Shown: one piece after another, positions 6,764 through 42,136 of the stretch
Layout: every line of letters starts with the position of its first letter
Position numbering within the stretch: the first letter of the stretch is position 1
NCBI RefSeq assembly: GCF_003991155.1
Contig: NZ_CP031293.1
DNA from: Escherichia coli
GTDB lineage: Bacteria > Pseudomonadota > Gammaproteobacteria > Enterobacterales > Enterobacteriaceae
Strand: one strand, 5' to 3'
Length of the DNA stretch: 64,000 bases
Program-made: the position numbers and the translations under genes
The notes under the pieces: generated by a model
The model's input: the letters and a program-made list of their open reading frames with translations, nothing else
Database searches by the model: none
What the model was told of the DNA's origin: nothing

Positions 6764-6890
6764 GCCGGATACGGCCTACGGATCGGCATAAACTTGTAGG
6801 CATGATAAGACGCGTCAAGCGTCGCATCAGGCATTGTGCGCCAGCTGCCGGATGCGGCGTGAACGCCTTATCCGGCCTACGGCACGTTAA
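6764..6890. repeat. REP/BIME-type repetitive extragenic palindromes
   Basis: Repeated GCCGGATGCGGCGTGAACGCCTTATCCGGCCTAC-like units between convergent yjjW and yjjV. Confidence 0.7.
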
Positions 6891-13436: not shown

Positions 13437-14468
13437 ATGTCTGCATTTACCCCGGCAAGTGAAGTCTTGCTGCGTCACAGTGATGATTTCGAACAAAGCC
13501 GTATTCTGTTTGCCGGAGACTTACAGGATGACCTGCCCGCGCGTTTAGATACCGCGGCCAGCCGTGCTCATACCCAGCAATTCCACCATTGGCAGGTGTT
13601 AAGCCGCCAGATGGGGGATAACGCCCGTTTTAGTCTGGTCGCCACGGCGGATGATGTCGCAGATTGCGATACGCTGATTTACTACTGGCCGAAGAACAAA
13701 CCGGAAGCCCAGTTCCAGTTGATGAATTTACTTTCTCTGCTGCCGGTGGGCACGGATATTTTTGTCGTTGGCGAGAACCGCAGCGGCGTGCGCAGCGCCG
13801 AGCAGATGCTGGCAGATTATGCGCCGTTGAATAAAGTGGACAGCGCTCGTCGCTGTGGCCTCTATTTTGGTCGTCTGGAAAAACAGCCAGTATTTGATGC
13901 CGATAAATTCTGGGGCGAATATAACGTCGATGGCCTGACGGTCAAAACGCTGCCTGGCGTGTTTAGCCGCGACGGTCTGGATGTCGGTAGCCAGTTGCTG
14001 CTCTCGACGTTAACCCCGCACACGAAAGGTAAAGTGCTGGATGTCGGCTGTGGCGCGGGCGTACTTTCGGTTGCCTTTGCGCGCCATTCACCGAAAATTC
14101 GTCTCACTCTGTGCGATGTCTCTGCGCCAGCGGTAGAAGCCAGCCGCGCAACACTTGCGGCCAACGGTGTTGAAGGTGAAGTCTTTGCCAGTAACGTCTT
14201 TTCCGAGGTGAAAGGTCGTTTTGATATGATCATCTCCAACCCGCCGTTCCACGATGGGATGCAAACCAGCCTCGATGCGGCGCAAACGCTGATTCGCGGC
14301 GCGGTGCGTCATCTTAATAGCGGCGGCGAGCTGCGAATTGTAGCGAACGCCTTCCTGCCTTACCCGGACGTGCTGGATGAGACATTTGGCTTCCACGAAG
14401 TGATCGCGCAAACCGGGCGCTTCAAGGTATATCGCGCCATTATGACCCGCCAGGCGAAGAAAGGTTGA
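13437..14468 (+). CDS. rsmC: 16S rRNA (guanine1207-N2)-methyltransferase
   Basis: 343 aa; SAM-binding [11 protein letters not shown] and NPPFH motifs. Confidence 0.9.
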
Positions 14469-14469
14469 G

Positions 14470-14650
<181 letters not shown>

Positions 14651-14699: not shown

Positions 14700-14727
14700 T
14701 TGACGAAAAGCTGAAAACCACTAGAAT
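14700..14727 (+). promoter_or_regulatory. Sigma70 promoter of the tRNA-Leu operon (TTGACG, 16-bp spacer, TAGAAT) with GC-rich discriminator
   Basis: Near-consensus -35/-10 hexamers about 40 bp upstream of the first tRNA; GCGCCTCC discriminator typical of stringently controlled stable-RNA promoters. Confidence 0.7.
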
Positions 14728-14768
14728 GCGCCTCCGTGGTAGCAATTCTTTTTAAGAATTGATGGTAT

Positions 14769-14855
14769 GCGAAGGTGGCGGAATTGGTAGACGCGCTAGC
14801 TTCAGGTGTTAGTGTCCTTACGGACGTGGGGGTTCAAGTCCCCCCCCTCGCACCA
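14769..14855 (+). tRNA. leuV: tRNA-Leu (anticodon CAG), copy 1
   Basis: 87-nt sequence GCGAAGGTGGCGGAATTGGTAGACGCG...CTCGCACCA with encoded CCA and long variable arm; anticodon CAG at 14803..14805. Confidence 0.95.
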
Positions 14856-14883
14856 AAAACCACGTTGATATTGCTCGCACTGG

Positions 14884-14970
14884 GCGAAGGTGGCGGAATT
14901 GGTAGACGCGCTAGCTTCAGGTGTTAGTGTTCTTACGGACGTGGGGGTTCAAGTCCCCCCCCTCGCACCA
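14884..14970 (+). tRNA. leuP: tRNA-Leu (anticodon CAG), copy 2; one substitution (T at 14931) relative to copies 1 and 3
   Basis: 87-nt tandem copy, identical apart from the single variable-arm difference. Confidence 0.95.
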
Positions 14971-15004
14971 AACGAGGCGATATCAAAAAAAGTAAGATGA
15001 CTGT

Positions 15005-15091
15005 GCGAAGGTGGCGGAATTGGTAGACGCGCTAGCTTCAGGTGTTAGTGTCCTTACGGACGTGGGGGTTCAAGTCCCCCCCCTCGCACCA
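15005..15091 (+). tRNA. leuQ: tRNA-Leu (anticodon CAG), copy 3
   Basis: 87-nt tandem copy identical to copy 1. Confidence 0.95.
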
Positions 15092-15129
15092 ATTATCTTT
15101 ACTTCCTTTCTTGTTGCTTCCCTGTTTTA

Positions 15130-15366
15130 TCATCCCTGCTTCAAATTCATTATCATCAGCATGATGCCAGCAATAAGCGCCAGGCACGATGGTAGCAAAA
15201 CGTAATGCCGCAACTGTTTGTGATACAGCATCACCGGCGTCAATACTAATCCCATCAGAATGACAATCCGCCACTGATCCGGCGATAAATCCGCATACAT
15301 CAGCCCTGCAATCAGCAATCCCGGCAGCAACACTCCCCAGCCACTGCCCAGCGTACGTTGCAACAT
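15130..15366 (-). CDS. yjjZ: Small inner-membrane protein YjjZ (Fur-regulated)
   Basis: 78-aa hydrophobic product from an internal ATG of ORF 15130..15477; divergent from fhuF with a Fur-box-like site immediately upstream. Confidence 0.65.
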   Translation of the reverse strand: MLQRTLGSGWGVLLPGLLIAGLMYADLSPDQWRIVILMGLVLTPVMLYHKQLRHYVLLPSCLALIAGIMLMIMNLKQG

Positions 15367-42042: not shown

Positions 42043-42059
42043 ATTTAGCGCGGTGCGAA

Positions 42060-42136
42060 TGTGCGCCAACACACCCGCACCGCTCATCACAATCCCTATT
42101 TCACGAGAATAGTAATCATGACTGACACGCATTCTA
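42060..42136 (-). ncRNA. symR: Probable SymR antisense sRNA (antitoxin of SymE), approximate coordinates
   Basis: Inferred from the known cis-antisense arrangement over the symE RBS and start codon; boundaries not determined from sequence. Confidence 0.35.

Follow-up and report, generated by a model that had tools for sequence, protein, structure and literature searches.

Three tRNA-Leu(CAG) genes lie in tandem, as the sequence-only reading had proposed; they stand between rsmC and yjjZ (Table 1). ARAGORN finds exactly these three, and no further tRNA, in the window (the whole 64-kb stretch of DNA that was analysed), and the Rfam tRNA model RF00005 gives each copy 48.5 bits against a gathering score of 29. 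The ARAGORN drawings display the features of class II in every copy: a cloverleaf, a long variable arm and the anticodon CAG. The 3' CCA is genome-encoded, each gene ending ...GCACCA; every copy has A just before CCA, and its D-loop and T-loop match those of K-12 tRNA-Leu1. When the 87-nt copies are aligned, they differ in one column alone, position 48, with C, T and C in copies 1 to 3. A recount on this alignment agrees with the earlier statement that the outer copies (1 and 3) are identical over all 87 nt; direct reading, alignment and cloverleaf likewise bear out the T for C in the variable arm of the middle copy, where gene position 48 is window base 14931 (AGTGTTCTTACGG versus AGTGTCCTTACGG). 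Three 87-nt copies one base apart cannot resemble one another by chance. Three of the four genes for tRNA-Leu1 (anticodon CAG) belong to this operon, the fourth being leuT in the argX operon; the leucine codon most used in E. coli is CUG.

Table 1. Features of the leuQ-leuP-leuV locus, in window coordinates
Feature	Position	Strand	Description
rsmC	13437..14468	+	16S rRNA m2G1207 methyltransferase; annotation by offset from the 100%-identical strain 2016C-3878
Operon promoter	14700..14735	+	-35 TTGACG 14700-14705, 16-nt spacer, -10 TAGAAT 14722-14727
5' leader	14736..14768	+	Precursor leader containing the hairpin 14743-14749/14755-14761
Helix H1	14735-14740 (CGTGGT) with 14859-14864 (ACCACG)		Predicted, around leuQ
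Leader hairpin	14743-14749 with 14755-14761 (CAATTCT/AGAATTG)		Predicted, in the 5' leader
leuQ	14769..14855	+	tRNA-Leu(CAG), C at position 48; ARAGORN, Rfam, NC_000913.3 names
Spacer 1	14856..14883	+	28 nt; orthologous across Enterobacteriaceae genera
Helix H2	14865-14877 with 14973-14986		Predicted, around leuP
leuP	14884..14970	+	tRNA-Leu(CAG) isodecoder, T at 14931; alignment, ARAGORN cloverleaf, K-12 base
Spacer 2	14971..15004	+	34 nt; orthologous across Enterobacteriaceae genera
Helix H3	14992-15000 with 15093-15102		Predicted, around leuV
leuV	15005..15091	+	tRNA-Leu(CAG) identical to leuQ; ARAGORN, Rfam, alignment, NC_000913.3 names
3' trailer	15092..15151	+	Pyrimidine-rich, G-poor: C 16, G 4 in 60 nt; Rho-dependent termination has been reported for this region
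yjjZ	15130-15366	-	Convergent gene; 3' end overlapped by the operon 3' trailer

The same operon is found in K-12 MG1655, where leuQ (b4370), leuP (b4369) and leuV (b4368) occupy positions 4606079-4606401 of NC_000913.3 on the minus strand; the names run there in transcription order, so that copy 1 is leuQ, copy 2 leuP and copy 3 leuV. The comparison with reference genes that had been suggested returns the same C-T-C order, between the same neighbours, rsmC and yjjZ: the window equals K-12 MG1655 in the tRNAs, both spacers, the leader, the promoter hexamers and the T in leuP. The two differ by three substitutions upstream of the -35 hexamer (window 14645, 14684 and 14686), by several in the trailer and yjjZ, and in the intergenic region from rsmC to the promoter, which is 33 nt shorter in the window than in K-12. 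Between rsmC and the leu promoter lies one of two matches in the window to the Rfam family naRNA4 (RF02564, REP-type repeats), at 14547-14629 (-); the other is at 6799-6877 (-). The wider synteny is deoCABD ... prfC-yjjG-rimI-holD-rsmC / three tRNA-Leu / yjjZ-fhuF-bglJ, in which rsmC, whose translation ends ...RQAKKG-stop, is a synteny marker outside the operon. Of 5,426 complete E. coli genomes, 5,425 have a match to a 561-nt query around the genes, and strain 2016C-3878 agrees with it at 100% identity; the region around the array is ordinary E. coli chromosome. Elsewhere in the window, 42047-42123 (-) matches the SymR antitoxin RNA (RF01809, 88.9 bits), which E. coli would be expected to have in this chromosomal region.

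The near-consensus sigma70 promoter with a GC-rich discriminator, noticed at first from the letters, holds up in a consensus scan, in which the hexamers match at 10 of 12 positions; the stretch is identical to K-12 throughout. The discriminator, GCGCCTCC at 14728-14735, is GC-rich and lies directly 3' of the -10 hexamer. Transcription would start near 14735-14736, and a FIS site has been placed about 70 nt upstream of the transcription start (PMC9122604). A literature search directed at the leuV promoter itself gave nothing of use. From this strong sigma-70 promoter with its GC-rich discriminator a single transcript of about 360 nt would be made; RNase P, acting without RNase E, would cut it into three tRNAs, and PNPase and RNase II would trim the trailer left by Rho-dependent termination. 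The published work reports this route: leuQ-leuP-leuV transcripts end Rho-dependently and lose their trailer to PNPase and RNase II (PMC2190699), and the three tRNAs are cut apart by RNase P with no need of RNase E (PMC2190699, PMC7049720). A terminator scan finds no intrinsic terminator-like site on the + strand downstream of leuV.

Each tRNA of the operon is bracketed by complementary flanking segments (H1 to H3 in Table 1), conserved across Enterobacterales with some compensatory changes. These three helices and the leader hairpin are all predicted unprompted by RNAalifold from 40 operons of named species. In the four-helix structure 95% of cells pair, and 29-50% do so once the partners are shifted by 1-3 columns. 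Its covariation score of 0.165 falls to 0.013-0.054 on shifting and was reached by 0 of 500 shuffles; pairs changed on both sides, however, number 6, no more than in the shuffles. Such changes occur at 2 of the 7 pairs of the leader hairpin, as in an AU<->UA exchange in 16 sequences. Duplex energies were compared with those of shuffled flanks in 43 distinct arrays from the allele-blind sample described below. For H2 the energy is -15.95 versus -6.32 kcal/mol shuffled (z = -4.2), with 43 of 43 arrays below z = -1.64; for H1 it is -9.1 versus -4.1 kcal/mol, and for H3 -7.8 versus -3.6 kcal/mol, with a cross-lineage control at -4.7 kcal/mol. The complementarity of H3 persists even where the sequence is entirely different. 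An explicit published description of the flanking helices was not found; PMC2190699 refers to predictions for the full transcript as data not shown. One may speculate that the predicted helices help to offer each tRNA to RNase P while shielding the spacers against RNase E.

The base that sets leuP apart forms the third pair of the 4-bp variable-arm stem in the ARAGORN cloverleaf, C-G in leuQ and leuV and U.G in leuP. Minimum-free-energy folds of the bare single tRNAs gave no cloverleaf with either allele (z-scores -1.4 and -0.6), and this folding was replaced by the energy of the fixed ARAGORN cloverleaf, which is -30.0 kcal/mol with C and -27.1 kcal/mol with T. The isolated variable arm has -5.2 kcal/mol with C-G and -2.3 kcal/mol with U.G, a cost of about 2.9 kcal/mol; as modelled, the pairing is retained in leuP yet weaker. 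Leucine identity in E. coli depends on A73 together with tertiary elements of the D-loop and T-loop; neither the sequence nor the folding of the long variable arm correlates with leucylation, and armless variants are still active (PMC9976931). The acceptor stem has a peculiarity of its own: its fifth pair (14773 with 14847, and likewise in the other copies) is an A.C mismatch in all three genes and throughout Enterobacteriaceae, presumably a known feature of tRNA-Leu1. The pair is G.U in Morganellaceae, and position 5 is C in a Lelliottia-like group.

How the two alleles are spread over E. coli was counted with 30-mers centred on the site, so that any 28-base exact word includes it. The T 30-mer occurs in 4,845 of the 5,426 complete genomes, at a median of one place per genome (maximum four), and the C 30-mer in 5,425 genomes, at a median of three places (range 1-7). 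Linkage of the allele to a position in the array comes from 82-nt queries that join 20 nt of unique flanking sequence to 62 nt of tRNA. Spacer 1 joined to T has 100% matches in 4,536 records, with the spacer 1 junction present in 4,998 genomes; the shortfall of 4,536 against 4,845 is due mostly to single-nucleotide differences in spacer 1 of some T genomes (CPww7 and YJR, for example). Spacer 1 joined to C matches 564 records at 99% identity or more, of which 431 match in the tRNA part only and are without the junction; about 133 are left. The leader joined to T (copy 1) is found in 61 records, and spacer 2 joined to T (copy 3) in 62, with the spacer 2 junction present in 5,142 genomes. By these counts about 89% of E. 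coli have T in leuP, the allele standing almost always in the middle copy; about 8% of genomes have contracted arrays of one or two genes and no spacer 1 junction; roughly 2.5% read C-C-C, and roughly 1% each have T in the first or in the third copy. The C-to-T difference at 14931 is, on this evidence, the normal inherited state of the locus. The sequence-only reading had offered a strain polymorphism or an isodecoder difference: the second stands, with the same T in K-12, in the genomes just counted and in the literature, and the first holds only in reverse, in that some 11% of E. coli appear to have lost the T by contraction or by conversion to C.

The arrays that depart from C-T-C do so in several ways. 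C-C-C is the state of 2013C-4465 and of one MG1655 assembly; O157:H7 ATCC 43888 and AVS0744 have a single gene between leader and trailer, and a single-gene array is seen in many O157:H7 strains; 2015C-4136CT1 has two genes, in the order leader-T-spacer 2-C; Nissle 1917 and ATCC 25922 read C-T-T, and EA7 reads T-T-T. Unequal crossing-over and gene conversion between the 87-nt tandem copies would occasionally erase, spread or delete the variant, producing contracted, expanded and converted arrays; a literature search for gene conversion and isodecoders among E. coli tRNAs found nothing specific. Places for this tRNA reach 7-10 per genome in some E. coli, and in the E. coli genome set a few tRNA-Leu(CAG) copies are annotated on plasmid records (9 places in total, for example on the 294-kb NZ_CP170379.1); these may be genuinely plasmid-borne or pieces of chromosome assigned to the wrong record.

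Each of the three genes contains a run of eight C (14840-14847, 14955-14962 and 15076-15083), which in some copies of public assemblies is 7, 9, 10 or more C long. The run is an indel hotspot in mismatch-repair-defective lines (PMC8510543), and some of its variants are probably sequencing or polishing errors. In several variant E. coli arrays this run, too, is altered, to 7 C or 9 C. Part of the rare array variation is therefore possibly polishing error; some variant arrays may be artefacts of assembly or polishing, and the probable errors in the run leave less confidence in the rare 'converted' arrays. As counted, the array contracts, expands and swaps its marker base at percent-level frequencies in E. 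coli, which is relevant to the use of tRNA loci as stable markers and to the trust placed in assemblies across repeats.

Beyond E. coli, one genome per species was scanned for the exact T-allele variable arm; the sample is thus selected for T and cannot show how often T is absent. The arm is present in at least 120 stretches from at least 96 genomes, and the matches listed are all Enterobacterales. Among the matches listed in this T-selected sample there are 43 rsmC-linked three-gene arrays: 35 with T confined to the middle copy, 7 with T confined to the third and 1 that reads T-T-C; in none of the 43 is T confined to the first copy. The scarcity of T in copies 1 and 3 where the middle has T could point to a constraint on the pattern. 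The orthology of the leader and of both spacers can be recognised in Escherichia, Salmonella, Citrobacter, Klebsiella, Raoultella, Kosakonia, Phytobacter and others, and the C-T-C array with orthologous spacers occurs also in Salmonella, Citrobacter, Klebsiella, Raoultella and Kosakonia; the arrangement was therefore inherited and did not arise anew. Two-gene arrays of Morganellaceae read T-C in Xenorhabdus and Photorhabdus and C-T in Proteus and Morganella. When genomes are found through a T in leuT, which is blind to the array, T is present in the array in 24 and absent in 16, the latter including complete chromosomes of Enterobacter cloacae and E. hormaechei.

An allele-blind sample was drawn from metagenomes, with the leader and the first 47 nt of copy 1 as anchor; many contigs end in the array or collapse it, and single-gene 'C' contigs were left out of the counts. 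Of about 42 distinct complete three-gene arrays, 36 are heterogeneous in the variable arm. C-T-C accounts for 10, among them five E. coli-like arrays and four with an RsmC 86-91.5% identical to that of E. coli. The remaining arrays contain at least 10 other variable-arm variants, in patterns that include C-b-b, g-b-b, C-b-C, C-e-C, c-d-d, e-a-T, C-T-T, a-a-a and T-T-T. One variant is a base shorter, TGTCCTTAGGATGTG, and the C-e-C lineage, which has a Klebsiella pneumoniae-like leader, has a U.G wobble at the neighbouring pair of its middle copy. Outside the variable arm the tRNA barely varies among Enterobacterales copies; the arm is therefore the one tolerant part of the molecule, and the T of leuP one old variant among many.

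The whole is best understood, and we hold this with high confidence, if the feature is the E. coli leuQ-leuP-leuV operon and the base in leuP an old, nearly neutral isodecoder difference. Near-neutrality is inferred because E. coli LeuRS does not use the variable arm, and because the variable arm is what varies most between copies across Enterobacterales. Against it stand the cost of the U.G pair in the isolated stem, and the C-T-C order retained in several genera, which ought to have reached saturation at neutral sites.

In a different perspective, the isodecoders would differ in function and the mixed array, with its weaker U.G in the middle and C-G in the outer copies, would be held by weak purifying selection across Enterobacteriaceae. 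The selected property, if any, could be precursor folding or processing, tRNA stability, a condition-specific role or behaviour under stress. The placement of the T speaks for such selection, in the middle only in most of the T-selected arrays listed and never in the first only; so do the orthologous spacers, by which the pattern has been inherited across genera, and the C/T dimorphism of the Morganellaceae two-gene arrays, which recurs on a different acceptor-stem background. The C-e-C arrays can be counted on the same side, as can the dominance of C-T-C within E. coli, where converted arrays stay at 1-2.5%. However, the species sample that yields the placement was chosen for T; 16 of the 40 genomes ascertained through leuT are without T in the array, and where the sampling was blind to the allele C-T-C is one pattern of many, uniform a-a-a and T-T-T among them. 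O157:H7, O55:H7 and ETEC H10407 are successful lineages without the T or with a single gene, and the variable arm is dispensable for leucylation (PMC9976931). We regard selection on the array as unlikely. If it were true, bacterial tRNA-Leu(CAG) isodecoders would differ in some such property; and if either the isodecoder difference or the conserved flanking helices were functional, they would have a bearing on how RNase P handles polycistronic precursors.

It is far less probable that leuP is decaying or does not function as a tRNA gene. The weaker variable stem would fit with decay, as would the bare minimum-free-energy fold of leuP, which is not a cloverleaf, though that of copy 1 is not one either. 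Yet the pair is retained as U.G, and ARAGORN and Rfam score leuP as high as its sisters; the other 86 positions match the sister copies across genera, which would be unexpected without constraint, and tRNA-seq work has leuP as a gene category of its own, (leuP) being kept apart from (leuQ leuT leuV) in the assignment of reads (bioRxiv 10.1101/2020.02.21.958157). The pseudogene reading was rejected on the retained pair, the equal detector scores and the conservation of the other positions.

That the T is a polymorphism private to the strain, or an error of sequencing or transcription, is scarcely credible and was rejected: apart from prior possibility it has in its favour the 11% or so of E. 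coli genomes that differ at the locus, and against it the T read directly from the window at 14931, shared by K-12 MG1655, by 4,845 of 5,426 E. coli genomes and by many other genera. This is a clean negative, in that the leuP variant is neither an error nor a strain marker.

The feature is already on record: the operon, its promoter, its processing and the base difference in leuP are all textbook matter or published. The single-base difference of leuP is noted in PMC12472396, and Mohanty and Kushner (PMC2190699) handle the tRNA genes of the operon as identical. In Table 1 of the latter, the sequence after CCA is given as CCAAACGAG for leuQ and CCAAAAACC for leuP; in the window it begins AAAACC for leuQ (14856-14864) and AACGAG for leuP (14971-14979), and the two entries in that table appear to be swapped.

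Two other tRNA operons invite comparison. The gene leuT, in argX-hisR-leuT-proM, is in E. coli identical to leuQ and leuV over all 87 nt, C allele included, and in many other genera it has the T allele; it differs in that it belongs to a separate operon, which is processed by RNase E (PMC2190699). The valV-valW operon shares the route of leuQ-leuP-leuV: it is the other tRNA operon that depends on RNase P, is independent of RNase E and terminates in a Rho-dependent way, RNase P separating the tRNAs and PNPase and RNase II taking off the unstructured trailer (PMC2190699). It differs in having two genes, which fall just short of identity and are 4 nt apart. Isodecoders, tRNAs with the same anticodon and another body sequence, are documented best in eukaryotes. 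In that sense leuP is an isodecoder of leuQ, leuV and leuT, from which it differs by one wobble-preserving base.
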